This document shows positions 2,904 through 18,738 of a DNA stretch of 21,061 nt, one piece after another. The stretch is from Candidatus Nanohalobium sp. (GTDB taxonomy: Archaea; Nanohalarchaeota; Nanosalinia; Nanosalinales; Nanosalinaceae): NCBI GenBank assembly GCA_042216335.1, contig JBDGTY010000004.1, positions 4,475 to 25,535 on the forward strand. The letters are read 5' to 3'. The notes under the pieces are model-generated. The model ran no database searches. It was not told where the DNA came from and saw only the letters and a list, made by a program, of their open reading frames with translations. Within the stretch, counting starts at the first letter, position 1, and every line of letters starts with the position of its first letter. The position numbers and the translations under genes are program-made.

Positions 2904-3392
2904 TTAATCTTCGTCACTGTCTTCTCCATCTTTGTCCTTGTTCCCGAGGATGACCTCTTTCGTGGACTTGTCCCCTTTATCTTTCTTGTCTTTCTCGACC
3001 TGGTCTCTGTCAACGTAGCTCTTCCGTTTCTGCCTTTCCTCGATTTTCTCCCAGATGTATTCGAACGGCTTCGCCACCGTCTTGGCGACGTGGTACGGTA
3101 TCGGTATGACTGTCGAGCCCACCTTGTAGAGCGAGGCCAGGAGGCTGTAAACCATGTAGAGCGATGCTCCAAGGAATGAGAACAGCAGGAGATCGTTGAT
3201 GTCGATCGGGCCGCCCTGCATGTACTTCAGTGTGACGTAGAATGCTCCTGAGAGCAGTGTGACGATGACCGTCTCGAAAACCATCTCCATAAGTTTGAAG
3301 GCGATGACGAGCGCCAGTATCAGGGCTACGACCAGGAGTATGCTTATGCCGCTGCCCTGTGTCTGTACCGCGTTTATTATCTGGTCTATCAC
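2904..3392 (-). CDS. Integral membrane hypothetical protein (about 3 TM, charged C-tail)
   Basis: Three hydrophobic helices and a K/D/E-rich tail. The GTG start overlaps the TGA of the upstream gene (GTGA at 3389-3392). Confidence 0.75.
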   Translation of the reverse strand: MIDQIINAVQTQGSGISILLVVALILALVIAFKLMEMVFETVIVTLLSGAFYVTLKYMQGGPIDINDLLLFSFLGASLYMVYSLLASLYKVGSTVIPIPYHVAKTVAKPFEYIWEKIEERQKRKSYVDRDQVEKDKKDKGDKSTKEVILGNKDKDGEDSDED

Positions 3393-6034
3393 TGTCCCTC
3401 ACCGAGTACGTCGTATAGCGGGTCGCCTTCCTCAGGCACGTAGCTCGTGAAGAAGACGAAACCTATTATCAGTAACAGGATCACGATACCTGCGATCGGA
3501 AGGATCGGGATCCCTCCGCCGCTCTGATTTTGCTGTTGCTGGTCATCCGGGCCTCCGGGGCTTCCCGTTCCCGTGTCGTTGTTGTTTCCTCCGGTGTTCG
3601 GATCCTGGAAGTTGTTCTGCACCTGAGCAGTCACCGGGATCGTCCTCTGCATACTTCCCGCTGTCACCGTAACCGAGCCGGCGCTCGATGAAACGCCGTT
3701 GAACGTGAGTACCAGAGTCCTGCTGCTCCCCGCAGAGATGCTGTCAACTGCAGTTGCGGAGACATCGTAGACGCTGGAGCTTACTGAAACAGGTGATAGC
3801 GCCTGATCTCCGTTGTTTTCCAATGTTATTGTTGCCGAGCCTACTGCCCCGCTTGTGATCTCCCCCAGGCTGATGGAGGAAGGTGTGACAGTCAGTGTTT
3901 GTTCGGTCTGTCCTCCTGTACCCTGGTTTCCTGTGCTGTTCTGTGCAGGGTTGCCGGCTCCCAGATCCGCGATCAGTGTGGTGTCAAGTTCCAGTCTTTC
4001 GCCAGCCTCTGTCGTGAAGACGATCTGGCCGCTGTACTGTCCGGTGGTCTCCGGTGTGTAGGTGAATGTGATATCCTTTTTCTGATCCAGTGTCATGTTG
4101 GTCCTGTTTCCTTCTACCTGCATGTACTGCCCGACCTCTCCCTCGATCGTGACGTTGAAATCTACAGTCTGATCGACCGGCCCGATGTTCCTCAGCGTGA
4201 TGGTCTTCAGTATATCTTCCGTGTTCTCGGCGTTAACCTCTATGCCGCTGGCGGTCTCGCTGCAGATGTCGCCGGCCTCGACCTTGCAGTCCGCAGCGTT
4301 CACGTTAACGTTGAGTGTCTCCGAGTAGTTCGTGTCAGGATCAGTTAAAGTTACACTCCCGGAGACATCCGACAGAGTTGTCAGGTTCACAGCGAACTCC
4401 AGGACGTCACTTCCCGAAGCCGGGATGTCAACCGTTGAGTTAGTCAATTCTACTTCACTCGGCAGATCGGTTGAGACGTCAAGTGTGTTCGACGCCTCTA
4501 TCTCGTTCTGGATATCGACATAGAACATCTCCTTCTGAAGTCTATTAACCGGGAACTCCACGCTATCCGGAACCGTGAAGGTAGCGTCCTGGCTCTTCAC
4601 GTTGAAGCCCGAGGTCGAGAACTGCGTCTCGCCGTAGATATTCGTGGCGTTGACCTCTACGGTGTAGCTGCCCGTCGGCATATCCGAAGTTATCAGGGTC
4701 TCGGCCGTCATAACACCGTTCGCGATATCGTACGTTAGCTCGCTCATCGAAAAGCTTTCGACCATACTCCCGGAAGGATTGAAGACCGAGACGTTGATCA
4801 TCTGGAACCGGTCCTTGCTGTAAGAGTTCAGGGAGTACGGCTTGCCCAGGAAGATCCTGAGTTTGTAGTTGTTGCCGGTGTAGGCCGTCGGAGTACTCCT
4901 GTCCTCGATCTTGAAAGGCCTGAAAGTAACGTTTCTCCTGTCGACATGCCAGCGGTCATCGTTTGATGCATTGAACTTGAACCCGACCTTCTTCATGTAC
5001 CGGGAGGTATTCAGGTCAGGGATCTGGATCTCACCCGTGAAAACACCTGAACCTTGAGAAGAAAGAGTCATGTTCTTCAGGAGATGCCGACCCGACGAAT
5101 TAAACGCGTACATCGAAAGGTTCACCTGATCGGCAGCCGAATTAGTGATATTGTACTCGACCGAGATGTTCGCTCCTGCCTCACAGCTACCGACCATCGA
5201 CTCAGTCCTGCAGCCGTTGGAGGAGCTGAAACCGGTGATATCCCCCGAGATCGCCGGCGCCGTACTCAGGATACGCGAATACGTGCCGTGCTGGCCTGAG
5301 GATGACGTCGCCTTGACATGCATGACGTACTCGGAGTCTGTGGAGTGCGGGAACTCGACCTCGGCGTTGTAGAAGTAGTTCTCCTGAGAGTTATAGTTAT
5401 CCAGCATGAAAGAGTTACCTGGCTCGGAGAAACTGGCCCTGCCAGAGGCGTTGCCGTAGAAGACCTCGACACTCGCCTGAGTATCATCCAGGTAGTTGCC
5501 TGAAGAGGTGTTCAGTACCCGGACATCAAGCTTGTACTGCTTCCCTGCCTTCACGTCACCTTTCTCGTTCTCCATACCGGCGATATCGGTCAGGACCTCG
5601 ACCTTGAGTTCACCCACGTTCAGATCGTCTGTAAGGTTCGCAGGGCCATTGGAAGGCACCTCCGGGGAAAGAGTGGTGCCTGTCGCGTTGTACTTAATCA
5701 TGTCGCCACGCGTAAAGTTGGGCTGGAAATCAGCGTACCAGTAACCGCCGTAGAAGTAATCGAGAAGCGATGCGTTGGCGGAAGTATTGTAGTAATATTT
5801 TATATCCTCGATATCCGACTGGTTCAGGTTGCTCGGCACTACAGCGTTCCAGTTACCGGTCTCAGGATCCTGATACTGTAGCCTAACTACCTGAACGGTT
5901 GAGGTGTTCACACCTGTCTGACCCAGCGAGAAATCAGTGTTTACATCCTGCATCCTCCAGTCGGCCGCAGCCATCGAAACAAAACCGAAAACCAAAGCGA
6001 AAACCAGCAACGCTTTACTCTTCTGAATGTGCAT
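3389..6034 (-). CDS. Large cell-surface glycoprotein (Ig-like beta domains, Sec signal, C-terminal TM anchor)
   Basis: Signal peptide MHIQKSKALLVFALVFGFVSMAAA, more than 20 N-x-S/T sequons, Ig/ASH-like segments (TLRNIG, TLENNG), G/N/Q/T linkers and a C-terminal TM IPILPIAGIVILLLIIGFVFF. Confidence 0.85.
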   Translation of the reverse strand: MHIQKSKALLVFALVFGFVSMAAADWRMQDVNTDFSLGQTGVNTSTVQVVRLQYQDPETGNWNAVVPSNLNQSDIEDIKYYYNTSANASLLDYFYGGYWYADFQPNFTRGDMIKYNATGTTLSPEVPSNGPANLTDDLNVGELKVEVLTDIAGMENEKGDVKAGKQYKLDVRVLNTSSGNYLDDTQASVEVFYGNASGRASFSEPGNSFMLDNYNSQENYFYNAEVEFPHSTDSEYVMHVKATSSSGQHGTYSRILSTAPAISGDITGFSSSNGCRTESMVGSCEAGANISVEYNITNSAADQVNLSMYAFNSSGRHLLKNMTLSSQGSGVFTGEIQIPDLNTSRYMKKVGFKFNASNDDRWHVDRRNVTFRPFKIEDRSTPTAYTGNNYKLRIFLGKPYSLNSYSKDRFQMINVSVFNPSGSMVESFSMSELTYDIANGVMTAETLITSDMPTGSYTVEVNATNIYGETQFSTSGFNVKSQDATFTVPDSVEFPVNRLQKEMFYVDIQNEIEASNTLDVSTDLPSEVELTNSTVDIPASGSDVLEFAVNLTTLSDVSGSVTLTDPDTNYSETLNVNVNAADCKVEAGDICSETASGIEVNAENTEDILKTITLRNIGPVDQTVDFNVTIEGEVGQYMQVEGNRTNMTLDQKKDITFTYTPETTGQYSGQIVFTTEAGERLELDTTLIADLGAGNPAQNSTGNQGTGGQTEQTLTVTPSSISLGEITSGAVGSATITLENNGDQALSPVSVSSSVYDVSATAVDSISAGSSRTLVLTFNGVSSSAGSVTVTAGSMQRTIPVTAQVQNNFQDPNTGGNNNDTGTGSPGGPDDQQQQNQSGGGIPILPIAGIVILLLIIGFVFFTSYVPEEGDPLYDVLGEGQ

Positions 6035-12781: not shown

Positions 12782-13207
12782 TCACTTCTTGATGTACTCC
12801 CGGACTTCTCTGCGGAAAACTTCGAAGTCTCCCAGACCTTCAACTATATTCCTGTATGCTACCTCGTCATCTATAGAGCCGTACCTGCGCGCCAGTGCAT
12901 TCCTGAAACCCTTCATATCCTTCAAACTTTCAGAAAGTTCAGAAGATATTATATCGTCTTCAGCCAGCAGATCCGGAAAACCGGATTCATCCTCAGGAAC
13001 ACCAAGGCTTTCTGCTTTTACTATCATCGCACAGATATCATACGCTGCCTGTATCGCAGTCTTAACGTTCTTGTAGACGCCGTCCTTCTCAATGTCCAAC
13101 TGCTGAAACTCTTCAAACGTATCCGGCAGGTTCTCATCAACCCTATCCAGAGAAGAATCGATTAGATTCAGTTTCTCTCTTATCCTGTCCTCGGTCTGTT
13201 GTTCCAT
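12782..13207 (-). CDS. hepT: HEPN (DUF86) protein with a degenerate active site
   Basis: DUF86 pattern (IQAAYDIC, L.E..II) with motif GFRNALARRYGSID, where Arg replaces the expected His. Confidence 0.85.
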   Translation of the reverse strand: MEQQTEDRIREKLNLIDSSLDRVDENLPDTFEEFQQLDIEKDGVYKNVKTAIQAAYDICAMIVKAESLGVPEDESGFPDLLAEDDIISSELSESLKDMKGFRNALARRYGSIDDEVAYRNIVEGLGDFEVFRREVREYIKK

Positions 13208-13209
13208 TA

Positions 13210-13578
13210 TTAGCCTCCTATCGCTGTCCGGTAGAGCGGTTCAAAGCTTTCGAAGTCCCGAAAGGTTTCAAACGCCTCATCGTAGGCCAAGTCGTCTCTG
13301 CTATACAATAATTCTCCGCTGAAAACCTGCTTCCTGACATGTAGCGGCAAAGCCTCAAAAACAGAGACGTCTATTTCCTCAGGGACTCTGCCATCCAGTT
13401 CCATCTCAAGCTGCTGCGGATTGTCCACATCGGCCGAAATACAGATATCAATGTCGCGTGCAGTCTCCGGACTGTCAACATAAGATCCAAAGAGATAGAC
13501 AAAGCCGATATCCTCTCTGTCAAGACCGACCTCATCGGCTGCATCGAAGACTTCCTCCAGGATTTTCTCTCTTTCCAT
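13210..13578 (-). CDS. mntA: Minimal nucleotidyltransferase (MNT) antitoxin
   Basis: FVYLFGSYVDSPETARDIDICI, DVSVFEALPL and GELLY motifs. Ends 2 nt before the HEPN start. Confidence 0.88.
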   Translation of the reverse strand: MEREKILEEVFDAADEVGLDREDIGFVYLFGSYVDSPETARDIDICISADVDNPQQLEMELDGRVPEEIDVSVFEALPLHVRKQVFSGELLYSRDDLAYDEAFETFRDFESFEPLYRTAIGG

Positions 13579-13611
13579 ATCAAAGCATGAGTTCTGAGAG
13601 ATAAAAAACCT

Positions 13612-16335
13612 CTACTTCTCGATCCAGATAACATCCAGCTGGACGCACTCACACGTAGTTCCCACAAGCTCCGAGATGTTCGGCTGGGTCCTACCCTCGT
13701 CGCCGTGAATCAACTCCTTGATGTAGGTCCCGGCTTCCGCTTTAACTTCCAGCTCGAACTCTTTCTCTCCGGTCTTCTCCCAGTCCACTTCCAGGACCTC
13801 CCTCTCCCTGGTCTTCTCAGCTCTCCTGTGTTCAACTCTCTCCGGAGTCTCCTGTTCTATCTCACCGACAACCTCGGAGATGTTCTCCAGGTCTTCCTCG
13901 GTTATCTCGTCCTCTGTCTCGACTACTGCCCTGTACTCCTTATCTGAGTGTTTTTGTTTAATTTCAGGAGCTTTGTCTTTGTGAGTATATTGAATGTTGA
14001 AAATTTCTACTTTATCCGTAGACTCGTTGACCTCTTCTTTGAGCTCTTCCAAGTTAAGGTTTCTGTTTAACGGCTCAATCAGTTCTAGTACAAACTCTCT
14101 TTTACCAAAGCATTTAGCATCCACATCTTCTCGGCCAGAATTATGTGTCAAGAAACCATTTGCTGTAAATGTGTGAGGTTTCGAAACCTCTAGGCTAGTC
14201 AATTTATCTATTTCGGTTTTCTGGATTGATTCTATCCTATCCCAGTAGTAGCCATCGTCGTTCCAGTTTTCTTCATACCATTCATTGAATGTTGGGAAGC
14301 TATTCTTAGCCTTCATGTTTTCAAGCGGATTTAAATCTCGGTTGAGCCAAGTCCAAAGGTTAGACTTTGTAACCCAGTCTGAAACTTTTTCATGGATCTT
14401 CGATAGTTTCATTCCCTTGTCATCTAACTCTACTGCTGTTCTATATGCTTCTTTCCTATTCTCTATTTCTCTTCTTTTAGTCTTAAGATAGGCTAAGAAT
14501 GCTAAACTTCTCTCCTTCTTTTCTTTATGTACTTCGAATCCGACATTTTCTAGGAAGTCTATCATGTTCTGGTAGTTATTTTTTATATCAAAGGCGATTT
14601 TGTACGATAGACAGCCATCATCTCTTTGGGTATACTTATTCGTTCTAATCTTACCTGTCTCAACATCAAATTCTTCTAGAATTTCTTTCAATTGTAGTGC
14701 GTACTTTTCTGCAGAATCCTTTTGAGATTCTATTTTATTTAAGGAGAACTTGATTGAGGTCATACTTTTCCGGTTATATTCTCTATTGTCTATCCTAGGT
14801 GTCTCAGCCTCACAACCTAGTAGAGCCGAAACAAAGTTCATCTTCACGCATTTACTTCCCTCCATTATCCAGTTAGGGACCTCAAATTCTTTCTTTGTTT
14901 TTTCTCCTACAGGCACACCTAACGCAACCAGTAGCGTCCAAAGAGACTTAGAATACACCGCAACTTCATTACAATCTCCTGAAATAAGTTTCTCTTTCCC
15001 CTCTGCAGAAGTTACGGTTGTTTCTGATTTCCTACATCTTTCAAGAGAAGTTTCAAATCCTAGAGATTCTATTTCCTCTGTAATGCCTTTAATCTGTGGT
15101 TTTCCACCATAAAATGCTAAAGTAGTGTCTCTATCGCGAGTAACCATTGCGCTGCCATCCCCTAGAAGAACCCCAATTAGTCTAGAAATAGAACGAATGT
15201 TCTCATGAGAAGATTCCAAGGGTAAAAGGCCTTTACTCGCCAATTCTCTGAAAATCTTATCTCTATTGACGGATTCAAAGTACTCGTCCATGACGCTATG
15301 CAAATCTTCTTTATCGGCAATTCTATTCCCGCTAGATGAGTAGTTCTCTTTTCTTTCTCTTACTAACACCTCGTCGGACTTATCTAACTTGCCCGCTACC
15401 ACAAACCCGTCTCTAGTATTGAATGGGTGACTGGTAGTTGTAACCAAGTTCTTCCCGGTCCAAGTATTTACTTCCACTGTTTTAATATCTTGAGCCATGA
15501 AAGTCAAACTATCTTCAACTTCGACACTGTCTGAACTCTCTGTATCCTCTCTAAATGTTGGAATAGAATTTCCTACCTCTACCTCTGAGGCTGAAACTCT
15601 GCCCAATTTGGAGTCATAAGCGACACAGCCATGGAACTTGGATTCTACCGCTTTGCTTTCTCTGAGGAAAGGCCCTTCGATCTCCTGCTGCACACTTGTC
15701 GGGTACTGGTGGCCTGTCCAGTCACATTCCTCACATCCGCTGCCCCTGCAGTTCCTGCAGTGCCACTCCGTCTGCGGGATCTCACGGCTGTACTTGTTGT
15801 ACTGGCCGTAGATCAAAAGCGAGTTAACCTGAAGCTCCACCCTCTCACGGCCTTCACGCATATCAACTACTGCCATGATATCGGCCCGATCGAAGTCGAC
15901 CTGAATATCCAGTCGCTCCTCCATCTTCTTTCCGAGAAGCCGGGAGAGCTCGGTCTTGAGAGGTTCTGTCCACTCAACGCCGTACTCCTCCCAGAGCTCT
16001 TCCTCCGCCCTGACAGACTCCTCACGGGGCCGTATGCCGATCAGGAAGGTCTCCAGTTCGTACCTCTCAAACGAGTCTTCCACCATGTCGGCCCAGCGAT
16101 CCAGCTCGTCAAAGACTCCTTCACAGATCTCGCATTCTCCACCGATCTCTGCGTCCTCCGGAACGTTCTCCCGGACAAAATCATCTTCGTCAAGTTCTTC
16201 AGTATTTCTGATTATCTGTCCTCTCTCGAAGTTCTCAAGTCCGTGGCCGAGCTGGGCGAACTGTCTCCCCAGGCAGTGATCACAGAGTTCTTCATTTTCC
16301 AAGAGCTGGTCGGCTTTTTCCTGAATACTGAGCAT
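13612..16335 (-). CDS. pus10: tRNA pseudouridine(54/55) synthase Pus10, intein-containing (about 411-aa mature protein)
   Basis: N-terminal LCDHCLGRQF and CEIC, YGQYNKYSREIPQTEW, FHG|SGREDVDA catalytic motif, QETPERVEHRR, AEAGTYIKELIHGD-GRTQP. Confidence 0.95.
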   Translation of the reverse strand: MLSIQEKADQLLENEELCDHCLGRQFAQLGHGLENFERGQIIRNTEELDEDDFVRENVPEDAEIGGECEICEGVFDELDRWADMVEDSFERYELETFLIGIRPREESVRAEEELWEEYGVEWTEPLKTELSRLLGKKMEERLDIQVDFDRADIMAVVDMREGRERVELQVNSLLIYGQYNKYSREIPQTEWHCRNCRGSGCEECDWTGHQYPTSVQQEIEGPFLRESKAVESKFHGCVAYDSKLGRVSASEVEVGNSIPTFREDTESSDSVEVEDSLTFMAQDIKTVEVNTWTGKNLVTTTSHPFNTRDGFVVAGKLDKSDEVLVRERKENYSSSGNRIADKEDLHSVMDEYFESVNRDKIFRELASKGLLPLESSHENIRSISRLIGVLLGDGSAMVTRDRDTTLAFYGGKPQIKGITEEIESLGFETSLERCRKSETTVTSAEGKEKLISGDCNEVAVYSKSLWTLLVALGVPVGEKTKKEFEVPNWIMEGSKCVKMNFVSALLGCEAETPRIDNREYNRKSMTSIKFSLNKIESQKDSAEKYALQLKEILEEFDVETGKIRTNKYTQRDDGCLSYKIAFDIKNNYQNMIDFLENVGFEVHKEKKERSLAFLAYLKTKRREIENRKEAYRTAVELDDKGMKLSKIHEKVSDWVTKSNLWTWLNRDLNPLENMKAKNSFPTFNEWYEENWNDDGYYWDRIESIQKTEIDKLTSLEVSKPHTFTANGFLTHNSGREDVDAKCFGKREFVLELIEPLNRNLNLEELKEEVNESTDKVEIFNIQYTHKDKAPEIKQKHSDKEYRAVVETEDEITEEDLENISEVVGEIEQETPERVEHRRAEKTREREVLEVDWEKTGEKEFELEVKAEAGTYIKELIHGDEGRTQPNISELVGTTCECVQLDVIWIEK
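14140..15627 (-). mobile_element. Intein (496 aa) with a LAGLIDADG homing endonuclease in pus10
   Basis: Starts Cys1 (CVAYDSK), block B TTSHPF, LAGLIDADG motifs LIGVLLGDGS and FVSALLGCEA, ends HTFTANGFLTHN followed by Ser+1. The DNA is visibly AT-richer than the host gene. Confidence 0.95.
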
Positions 16336-16371
16336 AGGGAAACAATTCGAGGTGAAGTTTTTAAGAGCGAT

Positions 16372-18738
16372 TCAATCCCACTGTGAGCCATCGAACCTCT
16401 TGACCTTGAAAGGCCTTACCCAACTGTCTCCATCGTAGATCTTGACAGTACCCGGTGAAAAGCTCGAGTTGTAGTACTGTAAACCATAACCTGTCTTGAG
16501 GGAAACAGTGCCAGAGTCGGAAGCCGTATGTTCAGTGAAAGTTCGAACCTTGGCGACATAATTCTGATTAAACAGCAGATCAGACGTCGTGAACGATGTT
16601 TTATTCGCTGATATGTCGCTTCCCTGCTGGGAGAAAGTTGAGCCGCCATCAGTCGAAAGCATCAACCTGAACCCATCCTCGTTGTTCGAGTTGTCAGTCC
16701 AGGAAGCCGAGATCCTGTTGTTCTTTATTATAGAAGCTGAGAATCTGGAAGGCGGTGGCAGAATCGTTGTTCCAGAGATAGTAGAGGAGTCAGCTGAGTA
16801 TTCTGCCTGGATACTGCCATGACGTGCCTGTTCAGCTGTTGCCCGGGAAAAGACATCGTATTTCTCGCCGTCAAGCAAACCGGTAAATGTGTAAGTAGTG
16901 AGATCAGCCGCAAGGTTATCTTTGTGCGTCCAAGTACTTGACCCTGTAGGCCGGATCTTGGCCTCATACTTGGTATTGACCGATGCGTTATCAACCCATG
17001 AAGCCGTTACCTCACGTTTTATGGAAGTATCAAGAGATAGGCTTGTCGGTGCCGCTGGCTTAGTATACTCGTGGACGATGTCAGAAACGACCACATGGTC
17101 TACTGCAACGTAGTCTCCCCCTCCTGCCTCATCTCCCTGAATTCGAATACGATTATCTGTAGAGAGCAGCGAGTCCGGAACCTCAATCGCTGCCTCAACC
17201 CATCCATTCCTGTTATATTCCCACGAATAGGAACCTGCCTCGATTTTCTGCCACGATGAACCATCGTACCACTCAAAGTGAATATCATCTGAATCTGCAT
17301 CGAAAGATCCAACCGCCAGAACAGACTTTATGAAAACATCGCTCTCATTCGAGATATCTCCAAGATTCTTCTGGATGTAATCAGATCCATCAAGCCTCAC
17401 ATAGTAACTCCCCTGATCTGCACCAGAAATACCGAGACTATTATTGCTTCCCGAGTAAATTCCACCGCCTCCAGAAAAATCTGTAGCAGACCACTCCGAT
17501 AAATCCTGATCCTCAAAATCGTCCTTGAAGTATACATTACCCTCGTTGCCGTAATCGGCGTAAACCCACTTGCTGGTGCCTCCATCCGGAGCCACGGTTC
17601 TCAGCCTGAACTGGTACCGGGCATCTATCTCAAACCAGGAGTACTTATCATTGTCGAAGTGATGAAGATCGTCCGGGTCGGTAGTAGCCGCCTTCCAGGA
17701 TCCGTATCCTGATCCGGTATCCTTCCGGTACTGGATCTCGACGTGATCAAAAATATCGGTTCTGTTTGACCAGTTGATGTTTAATTGAGTACTGTTTCGG
17801 TTATCCACGAAAGGAGAATGCGGCGGAATTGGATCAGTATAGACTGTTCCAGACTGCGTCCAGGACGAACTGCCGGCCGAGTTCTCCGCTCTAACCCGGA
17901 ACTGGAATGATGAGTCTATACCGACAAACGAGTCATAGCTAACGTCACTCGTCGAATTGTAGGTCGCCGAAGTCGTACCCGACGCCGGCGTAGTAGGCCC
18001 ACCCGAAGGATCAACATATGAGGCAGCATCCCGCGAAAGCTGAATATGATAATTACCTTTTTCGCCTCCCCAATCAGAGGGGGGATCCCATGAAGCTGTT
18101 ATAGAATCGTTCGAGTTAACATTTAAGGCAAGATTTGAAGGTGCTGAAGGCGGTGAGACCGGAGTTGTATAGAAAGCATCCCACCACATGTAAGTGTTGT
18201 CAGGATTATCTGCAGGATGCCAATTTCCCGAATTATAGTTGTGTAGTTCAACAGCCGCGATATCAGTTCCGTTGATAAAACTACCAGTATAGGATTTGGT
18301 TGTACCCGACTGAAGATCCTCAAATGTCACGGTGAATTCAGAGTTAGACCAGTCAAATGTGGCAGATACTCTGATCCATCTATCATAACCATCTCCACCA
18401 TAAACTTCTGTAATCCCACTGCTATCATCAACATTCCATTGAGGGTTATTTGTGGCGAAACCACACTCATAGTTCCCGTTAGAGTTCTTCAACCGGACTC
18501 CAGAACCGTAGGAACTTGAAGACTCTTGAAAATAAAATTCAAACTCTGACGCCTGTTTGCCCGTCCCGTTCCAAGGCTGCCAAACTGCAAAATCATCTGG
18601 ATCACTTGGCGTGTCTGCTTGCACAGAACCAGAGTAAGATCCATCGTACACTCTATCACTAGCAGCTGAATTAAACGAGCCATTGTTTACAGTAAAACTT
18701 CCATCTGATTTAGAATCAAAATTGTACTCTTTAACCAT
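16372..18738 (-). CDS. Fibronectin type III repeat protein with lectin-like beta-sandwich domains and no signal peptide
   Basis: Four Fn3-like units (PSAPSNL..ITASW..FQFRVRAEN; LNINW..YQFRLRT; PAAPTSL..VTASW..TGLLDGEKY; PPSRF..ISASWTDNSNNEDGF). W/Y/D/S-rich ConA/CBM-like domains lie at the N-terminus and in the middle. Confidence 0.85.
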   Translation of the reverse strand: MVKEYNFDSKSDGSFTVNNGSFNSAASDRVYDGSYSGSVQADTPSDPDDFAVWQPWNGTGKQASEFEFYFQESSSSYGSGVRLKNSNGNYECGFATNNPQWNVDDSSGITEVYGGDGYDRWIRVSATFDWSNSEFTVTFEDLQSGTTKSYTGSFINGTDIAAVELHNYNSGNWHPADNPDNTYMWWDAFYTTPVSPPSAPSNLALNVNSNDSITASWDPPSDWGGEKGNYHIQLSRDAASYVDPSGGPTTPASGTTSATYNSTSDVSYDSFVGIDSSFQFRVRAENSAGSSSWTQSGTVYTDPIPPHSPFVDNRNSTQLNINWSNRTDIFDHVEIQYRKDTGSGYGSWKAATTDPDDLHHFDNDKYSWFEIDARYQFRLRTVAPDGGTSKWVYADYGNEGNVYFKDDFEDQDLSEWSATDFSGGGGIYSGSNNSLGISGADQGSYYVRLDGSDYIQKNLGDISNESDVFIKSVLAVGSFDADSDDIHFEWYDGSSWQKIEAGSYSWEYNRNGWVEAAIEVPDSLLSTDNRIRIQGDEAGGGDYVAVDHVVVSDIVHEYTKPAAPTSLSLDTSIKREVTASWVDNASVNTKYEAKIRPTGSSTWTHKDNLAADLTTYTFTGLLDGEKYDVFSRATAEQARHGSIQAEYSADSSTISGTTILPPPSRFSASIIKNNRISASWTDNSNNEDGFRLMLSTDGGSTFSQQGSDISANKTSFTTSDLLFNQNYVAKVRTFTEHTASDSGTVSLKTGYGLQYYNSSFSPGTVKIYDGDSWVRPFKVKRFDGSQWD

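Follow-up and report, generated by a model that had tools for sequence, protein, structure and literature searches.

In this study, we analysed a stretch of 21,061 nucleotides (hereafter the window) from Candidatus Nanohalobium sp. (GenBank assembly GCA_042216335.1, contig JBDGTY010000004.1, positions 4,475 to 25,535), a genome of 1.02 Mb in 74 contigs rated 96% complete. The minus strand of the window carries the gene of the tRNA pseudouridine synthase Pus10, whose reading frame is interrupted by a 496-residue intein with a predicted homing-endonuclease domain (Table 1). The host protein is recognised in Pfam by the archaeal Pus10 THUMP domain (PF22023, precursor residues 81-158) and by Pus10_C (PF21238, residues 721-905), and the NCBIfam equivalog TIGR01213 (tRNA pseudouridine 54/55 synthase) matches the two stretches flanking the intein with 440 bits against a cut-off of 200. 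The C-extein aligned from its first residue to the structure of human PUS10 (2v9k), from chain residue 341 (E 5.6e-30). Translation of each sub-feature by script placed the splice junctions (slashes below) exactly where the original prediction had put them, with FHG/C at residue 237 and HN/S after residue 732, and excision of the intein leaves 411 amino acids (aa) that are colinear with the Pus10 proteins of relatives.

The intein is inserted at the active site of its host. The catalytic Asp of Pus10 has been described as having a conserved Arg at -2 and an Asp at +2, with human D344A being inactive (available text of PMC6380271); no mention of D344 or D275 was found in the reviews PMC12710931 and PMC12716993. 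By the PMC6380271 rule, the catalytic residue of SGREDVD is its first Asp, at position +5 of the C-extein, since it has Arg at -2 and Asp at +2. The intein end is thus separated from the catalytic Asp by the four residues S-G-R-E, the distance originally predicted, and because the insert lies so close to this residue, unspliced Pus10 should be inactive. No Pus10 gene other than the precursor was found in the genome (own-genome matches were the precursor itself and the intein of topoisomerase IA, TopA), and Pus10 activity, as judged from the gene sequence, would require splicing. It had further been claimed that splicing is obligatory for the formation of pseudouridine (psi) 54/55. While the presence of a single Pus10 gene speaks for this claim, a Cbf5/TruB-type gene was also identified in the genome (82.5 bits against a cut-off of 27.3), and archaeal Cbf5 can modify tRNA U55 without guide RNA according to the available text of PMC3443816, which weakens the claim as regards psi55.

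The class-1 splicing mechanism depends on a set of residues that includes Cys1, block B, block F, the terminal Asn and the +1 residue (available text of the review PMC10663303). In the Pus10 intein, Cys1, the block B TxxH motif, the block F His485, the His495-Asn496 pair and Ser+1 are all present. The TCT codon at +1 differs at two positions from the GGN codons of the sister genes.

Table 1. Features of the pus10 locus, of the window and of genomes with related inteins. Window coordinates are given for the locus and its neighbours, and locus handles for other contigs; A2 is an alignment of five full-length Pus10 inteins; ORF, open reading frame.
Feature	Coordinates or loci	Strand	Basis or remark
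Pus10 precursor ORF, 907 aa plus stop codon (13612-13614)	13612..16335	-	ORF listing; Pfam PF22023 and PF21238; TIGR01213
N-extein, residues 1-236, ending ...SKAVESKFHG; zinc-ribbon and THUMP part of Pus10	15628..16335	-	translation; relatives match at 46-92% identity
Intein, 496 aa, precursor residues 237-732, Cys1 to Asn496; FHG/C...THN/SGREDVD	14140..15627	-	translation; predicted structure; structural matches to inteins
Cys1 codon, first splicing nucleophile	15625..15627	-	translation
Block B TxxH motif, TTSH, intein residues 64-67; His67 invariant in A2	15427..15438	-	translation; alignment
LAGLIDADG homing-endonuclease domain (predicted), about intein residues 140-380	14488..15210	-	structural alignment of model
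First LAGLIDADG motif, LIGVLLGDGS; acidic residue Asp157	15151..15180	-	G156, D157 and G158 invariant in A2
Second LAGLIDADG motif, FVSALLGCEA; acidic residue Glu273	14806..14835	-	G271 and E273 invariant in A2
Blocks F and G, LTSLEVSKPHTFTANGFLTHN; retains His485 of block F, His495 as the last but one residue and the closing Asn496; Ser478 in place of the block F Asp	14140..14202	-	translation; TIGR01443
+1 Ser codon TCT, second nucleophile; GGT, GGA or GGC (Gly) in same-genus intein-free genes	14137..14139	-	translation; relatives
C-extein, residues 733-907, Pus10 catalytic domain	13615..14139	-	relatives match residues 731-907
GREDVD catalytic motif of Pus10; catalytic Asp codon 14125-14127; R-E-D-V-D 14119-14133	14119..14136	-	translation
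HepT-like ribonuclease, directly downstream of pus10	12782-13207	-	protein family
Pol-beta-type nucleotidyltransferase, directly downstream of pus10	13210-13578	-	protein family
Large ORF, 788 aa, fibronectin-III or Ig-like repeats	16372-18738	-	no other recognised domain
Large ORF, 881 aa, fibronectin-III or Ig-like repeats	3389-6034	-	no other recognised domain
ORFs of the source genome (G000) with intein-profile matches	L081-L091 (G000 contigs C33, C35, C28, C16, C54, C38, C58, C56, C25, C17); also G000:C19:8498-11563		intein profiles
uS12 intein	L050-L055, L059, L067, L069, L075 (e.g. L050:2590-4563)		pattern scan
aRF1 intein	L058, L060, L061, L065, L066, L068, L070, L073, L078, L079 (e.g. 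L060:2476-5262)		pattern scan
Radical-SAM protein intein	L047-L049, L062, L076, L077 (e.g. L047:2548-5148)		pattern scan
Epimerase/dehydratase intein	L071, L072, L074, L080 (e.g. L072:2218-4626)		pattern scan

An AlphaFold2 model of the intein, built on an alignment of 11 rows, reached a predicted local distance difference test score (pLDDT) of 86.7 and a predicted template modelling score (pTM) of 0.82. The top PDB matches of this model in Foldseek were the TliVMA intein (E 6.3e-15), PI-PfuI, PI-TkoII and PI-SceI, followed by free endonucleases of the I-DmoI type. Its HINT domain superposed on the Ssp and Npu DnaB, gp41-1 and Mtu RecA mini-inteins with Z 18-19 and a root-mean-square deviation (rmsd) of 1.8-3.5 A over 120-144 residues. 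Model residues 140-380 matched I-DmoI (Z 15.5-15.8, rmsd 2.1-2.4, about 172 residues) and residues 141-452 matched E-DreI (Z 16.5 over 205 residues). At the sequence level, nothing in the PDB matched the intein beyond the Ssp DnaB intein, and this weakly and at the C-terminus (E 0.0058). By its modelled structure, the insert is a class-1 intein in which the HINT domain holds a two-motif LAGLIDADG endonuclease, and the earlier claim, that of a full intein bearing a homing endonuclease and inserted at the catalytic motif of Pus10, agrees with this fold and with the colinear 411-aa remainder.

The distribution of the intein among relatives bears on the time of its gain. Of 40 relatives searched with the precursor, 39 had a Pus10 match and 38 a readable junction, G006 (82% complete) being without a Pus10 match and G038 offering only a C-terminal piece at a contig end. 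The site was empty in all 38, with the parts matching residues 1-236 and 731-907 abutting and no insert between them, and the residue between HG and GRED was Gly in 19, Ala in 16, Asn in two and Cys in one. Three genomes of the same genus all read FHG-G-GREDV, and the Pus10 of one of them (G003) is letter-identical to an NCBI protein of Candidatus Nanohalobium constans. An intein match at E<=1e-45 was found in one of 70 genomes of the phylum, the source genome itself, while weaker matches (1e-26 to 1e-43) came from the organism's own TopA intein and from inteins of relatives, the ORFs of the latter measuring about 950 aa. In a tree of the extein columns, the source Pus10 is sister to intein-free G001 and nested within an intein-free genus, which would place the gain, putatively a recent one, on the organism's own terminal branch. 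With 0.052 against 0.057-0.074, the extein end branch does not exceed those of the three same-genus sisters, thus the host gene gives no sign of relaxed constraint.

The only sequencing run that contains the source DNA is a salt-lake metagenome, no RNA run being listed with it, and contigs from three runs of one study were compared over positions 13000-17000 of the window. A contig from run X1 (2833 bases, depth 67, two differing letters) spans both intein junctions, and since X1 may be the source sample, it is regarded as a second assembly and not as independent data. Another contig, about 80% alike, was recovered at depth 276 in X1 and 458 in X3 and joins position 15628 to 14115 via 24 diverged letters. 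This join falls exactly at the predicted intein boundary and its minus-strand letters read AGREDINV, thus relatives with empty sites live alongside the intein carrier. The organism concerned is a related nanohaloarchaeon of four- to seven-fold higher contig depth in the same samples, with an intein-free pus10 and Ala at +1, and the same AGREDINV motif is found in relative G009. Among contigs that are 95% or more alike, none lacks the intein, although contigs drop rare variants and are hence uninformative on mixed alleles within the strain.

The Pus10 intein site is not unique to the source genome and recurs, unannotated, in other DPANN archaea. A scan of 1.84 billion representative proteins identified three full-length intein-bearing Pus10 proteins, P0014 (913 aa), P0015 (933 aa) and P0016 (928 aa), together with a partial one (P0003) and two fragments (P0046 and P0088), and P0002 was added by a word-index search. 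Mini-inteins from which the endonuclease is deleted occupy the same site in P0021 (147 aa) and P0022 (167 aa), a late stage of the homing cycle. As to public labels, P0003 is a 'hypothetical protein, partial' and P0021 plain Pus10. A pattern scan of one genome per species yielded 41 loci with related inteins, eight of them in Pus10 at the same site, this number being a lower bound as just two peptide patterns, taken from A2, were used. Three of the eight belong to metagenome-assembled genomes (MAGs) of Aenigmatarchaeota (L040, L045, L063), one to a Micrarchaeota MAG (L046) and four to unclassified archaeal MAGs (L041-L044). The two sets of records overlap, in that the intein of L046 is identical to that of P0015 and L063 has its C-junction text in common with P0088.

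All Pus10 inteins are inserted between HG and (S/C)GRED, starting with Cys and ending with Asn. Among 39 inteins placed in a tree, those of Pus10 (13) group together as a single clade with a support of 100 (SH-aLRT, Shimodaira-Hasegawa-like approximate likelihood ratio test), apart from the inteins of uS12, aRF1, radical-SAM, HerA and bacterial epimerase hosts; one example of each host was checked in Pfam. Within NCBIfam, the best match of the intein part is NF038162, 'intein-containing RtcB family protein', with 224 bits over precursor residues 256-736; as the exteins have nothing in common, this score is far under the 1150 bits set for the whole protein. When the +1 residue was tabulated for intein-bearing and intein-free alleles, all 17 intein-bearing Pus10 proteins with a visible C-junction had Ser (13) or Cys (4), which fits the expectation that only Ser, Cys or Thr alleles carry the intein. 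The 144 intein-free library proteins with a readable motif, among 150 examined, had Ala (76), Met (26), Ser (18), Gly (6), Cys (5), Leu (4), Gln (2) or Thr (2) at this position, and Asn, Val, Glu, Lys and His once each; Ala is the commonest, in line with the remark that FHGAGRED is frequent in archaeal Pus10. Invasion is not prevented by the residue found at +1, since homing copies flanking extein DNA along with the intein.

Taking these results together, we consider it highly probable that the insert is a bifunctional class-1 intein, HINT plus LAGLIDADG, of a Pus10-specific lineage that circulates among DPANN archaea and entered pus10 on the organism's own terminal branch. For its arrival, DNA cleavage and splicing, we propose the following course. 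The endonuclease would cut the conserved FHG-x-GRED coding site in pus10 of a host of the genus Nanohalobium, and the cut would be repaired from an intein-bearing copy, a repair that would also import the Ser codon at +1. After translation, Cys1 would attack the Gly236-Cys1 bond, Ser+1 would take over the N-extein, and Asn496, with the help of His495, would cyclise and release the intein. This would yield a free endonuclease and a Pus10 of 411 aa whose active site, ...FHG-SGREDVD..., is complete.

Several observations weigh against this explanation. Profile support for the intein is modest, the matter being settled by the predicted structure: TIGR01443 (intein_Cterm) gave 23.1 bits against a cut-off of 15.6, but PF14890 passed its cut-off of 35.8 on the intein alone (36.5 bits) and not on the whole precursor (32.6 bits). 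LAGLIDADG_3 (PF14528) did not match the Pus10 intein even at E<=10, nor did Pfam return any LAGLIDADG family for it, while ten other intein-bearing ORFs of the genome, all of those scanned except TopA, have intein endonucleases that PF14528 recognises. The block F Asp, which assists steps 1 and 2 of splicing (available text of PMC10663303), is replaced by Ser478 here but retained in each of the 10 other Pus10 inteins used for comparison. Efficient splicing thereby becomes less certain while the fold does not, the Asp being a highly conserved assisting residue of class-1 inteins and not a defining one. In total, 24 of the 84 positions invariant among these 10 inteins differ here, the block F Asp included. 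The intein end branch (1.55 against a clade median of 0.31) is the longest of the Pus10 clade and this intein its most divergent member, and the segment following Cys1 is 8 residues shorter than in related inteins. The nearest known relative is only 36-37% identical, thus the sampled inteins include no donor. No co-conversion tract was visible, the identity to the three same-genus genes being flat (0.67-0.88 per 60-nt bin) outward from the junction. The intein is poorer in GC than its exteins (38.7% against 51.6%; at third codon positions, 0.367 against 0.628), in keeping with a recent gain, but every intein of the genome is GC-poor (0.38-0.475, all under the 0.50-0.54 of their hosts, with the Pus10 intein at 0.387 among the lowest), thus low GC alone cannot date the arrival.

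The loss of the block F Asp, the changes at family-invariant positions, the long intein branch and the shortened N-terminal HINT segment would also suit a decaying intein that splices poorly or not at all, with Pus10 partly or wholly inactivated and Cbf5 covering psi55, for which the Cbf5/TruB-type gene and the guide-free activity of archaeal Cbf5 mentioned above speak as well. We consider this quite improbable, however, as the frame has no stop in 907 codons, AT-rich DNA included, all nucleophiles and the two helper histidines are retained, the HINT fold is modelled at high confidence and the exteins are not accelerated relative to intein-free sisters. In addition, much of the divergence may reflect adaptation to a salt-rich cytoplasm: Asp and Glu make up 17.1% of the Pus10 intein, about 12% of its non-halophile relatives and 26.3% of its own exteins, and Lys and Arg 14.5%, 15-17% and 12.4%, respectively. 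An assembly artefact, fusing the DNA of two organisms at the junctions, might be suspected from an intein GC content 13 points under that of the exteins and from a 74-contig assembly of a mixed community. Yet the insertion is in frame and codon-exact at both ends, at a site used by 16 other sequences, the separately built X1 contig crosses both junctions (though possibly from the same source sample), and the other inteins of the genome are likewise GC-poor, so that such an origin is extremely improbable.

The acidic composition also bears on the earlier suggestion that splicing is conditional. In this view, high salt would turn splicing on or oxidation of Cys1 would block it, and the intein would be a switch on tRNA psi54/55 formation and not purely selfish. 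The Pus10 intein is net acidic and its relatives are not, salt-activated splicing in halophilic archaea is mentioned in the available text of PMC10663303 (citing Reitter et al. 2016), and an insert so near the catalytic Asp, at four residues, should leave the precursor inactive until it is spliced. On the other hand, the intein is absent from the other 69 genomes of the phylum, thus no regulatory role is conserved in the lineage, and salt dependence in a protein of a halophile may be just a folding adaptation; we therefore regard a regulatory switch as unlikely. A broader scenario would see here a wandering archaeal intein lineage that jumps among translation genes (uS12, aRF1, RtcB and Pus10), radical-SAM proteins and HerA, freshly arrived from another phylum and remade for salt (acidic, penultimate His gained, block F Asp lost), with salt- or redox-dependent splicing gating psi54/55. 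This scenario seems doubtful to us, and the preferred explanation is still that of a Pus10-specific homing intein.

Inteins of the same sequence family were also found in other hosts (Table 1). In uS12, the intein is inserted after ...RKC and ends with Asn before CV(R/V).Q; the ten MAGs are labelled Bathyarchaeota, Thaumarchaeota/Nitrososphaerales, Woesearchaeota/Nanoarchaeota and, in one case, Methanobacteriota. In aRF1 of Nitrososphaerota MAGs, it lies between ...LY.C and CDDHFH, a point that we take to be the YxCxxxF motif of the stop-codon-reading domain. In a radical-SAM protein of Thermoproteota and Baldrarchaeota MAGs, Cys1 of the intein follows directly after ...CNF(T/S)CPW of the iron-sulfur cluster motif. 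Bacterial MAGs (three Omnitrophota and one Planctomycetales) also have an intein of this family, which is otherwise archaeal, in an NAD-dependent epimerase/dehydratase.

The source genome itself holds 25 intein-profile matches in 13 ORFs, a dense load for 1.02 Mb. The hosts include ribonucleotide reductase, HerA, MCM, a Hel308-like helicase, SufB, RFC, a MoxR ATPase, dCTP deaminase, topoisomerase IA and Pus10, and the remaining ORFs are one of 1945 aa with several inteins, one in which only the intein was recognised and one containing a run of N. Elsewhere in the window, the HepT-like ribonuclease and the nucleotidyltransferase downstream of pus10 (12782-13578), overlapping or abutting, represent by family a toxin-antitoxin pair of the HEPN/MNT type. 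The two large repeat ORFs are possibly surface proteins of a host-dependent archaeon.

No link between Pus10 or pseudouridine synthases and inteins was found in the searchable literature, part of which was judged by title and abstract, in agreement with the earlier remark that Pus10 is not known as a catalogued intein host, although supplementary survey tables and InBase were outside the search and may list this host. Papers containing both 'intein' and 'tRNA pseudouridine synthase' used the terms in unrelated passages where compared, the papers on inteins and DPANN archaea included none about Pus10 by title or abstract, and the main text of the intein survey PMC4760082, as available, mentions neither pseudouridine nor Pus, its supplements being outside the search. 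The finding is thus a real and well-formed intein in a host gene unreported in the searchable literature, and, as far as the searched genomes go, the first of Nanohaloarchaeota. It adds a new host class, an RNA-modification enzyme, to the intein hosts, which according to surveys are mainly proteins of replication and repair. The Pus10 allele also offers a natural test system, as the three stages of the homing cycle, empty site, full intein and mini-intein, all exist across several DPANN phyla, and because the genome of Candidatus Nanohalobium constans, a sister with an intein-free pus10, is public, an empty target site is on hand for tests of homing, cleavage and salt-dependent splicing.

Among known systems, the TliVMA intein (7qss), PI-PfuI (1dq3), PI-TkoII (2cw7) and yeast PI-SceI (1vde) have the architecture of the Pus10 intein, a HINT domain interrupted by a two-motif LAGLIDADG endonuclease. 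While these four solved inteins were its best Foldseek matches (E 6e-15 to 6e-11, whole-chain Z 16-17), their sequence identity to it is just 10-18% and their hosts (V-ATPase, ribonucleotide reductase and DNA polymerase) are different. The salt-dependent inteins of haloarchaea (Reitter et al. 2016, as cited in the available text of PMC10663303) likewise work in a salt-rich cytoplasm and might be a model for the behaviour of the Pus10 intein, but they are located in replication proteins of Halobacteria. The RtcB-family intein differs in host and insertion site, and that of P0043, RtcB-like as read from sequence motifs only, is 30% identical to the Pus10 intein. The closest counterparts are the other Pus10 inteins (L040-L046, L063, P0002, P0003 and P0014-P0016), which have the same host, site and clade and are 31-37% identical to the intein described here. 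They have Ser or Ala at the penultimate position and the block F Asp, are rich in lysine and reside in hosts outside Nanohaloarchaeota, whereas the intein of Candidatus Nanohalobium sp. is acidic and carries His495 and Ser478, and part of this divergence may be adaptation to a halophilic host.

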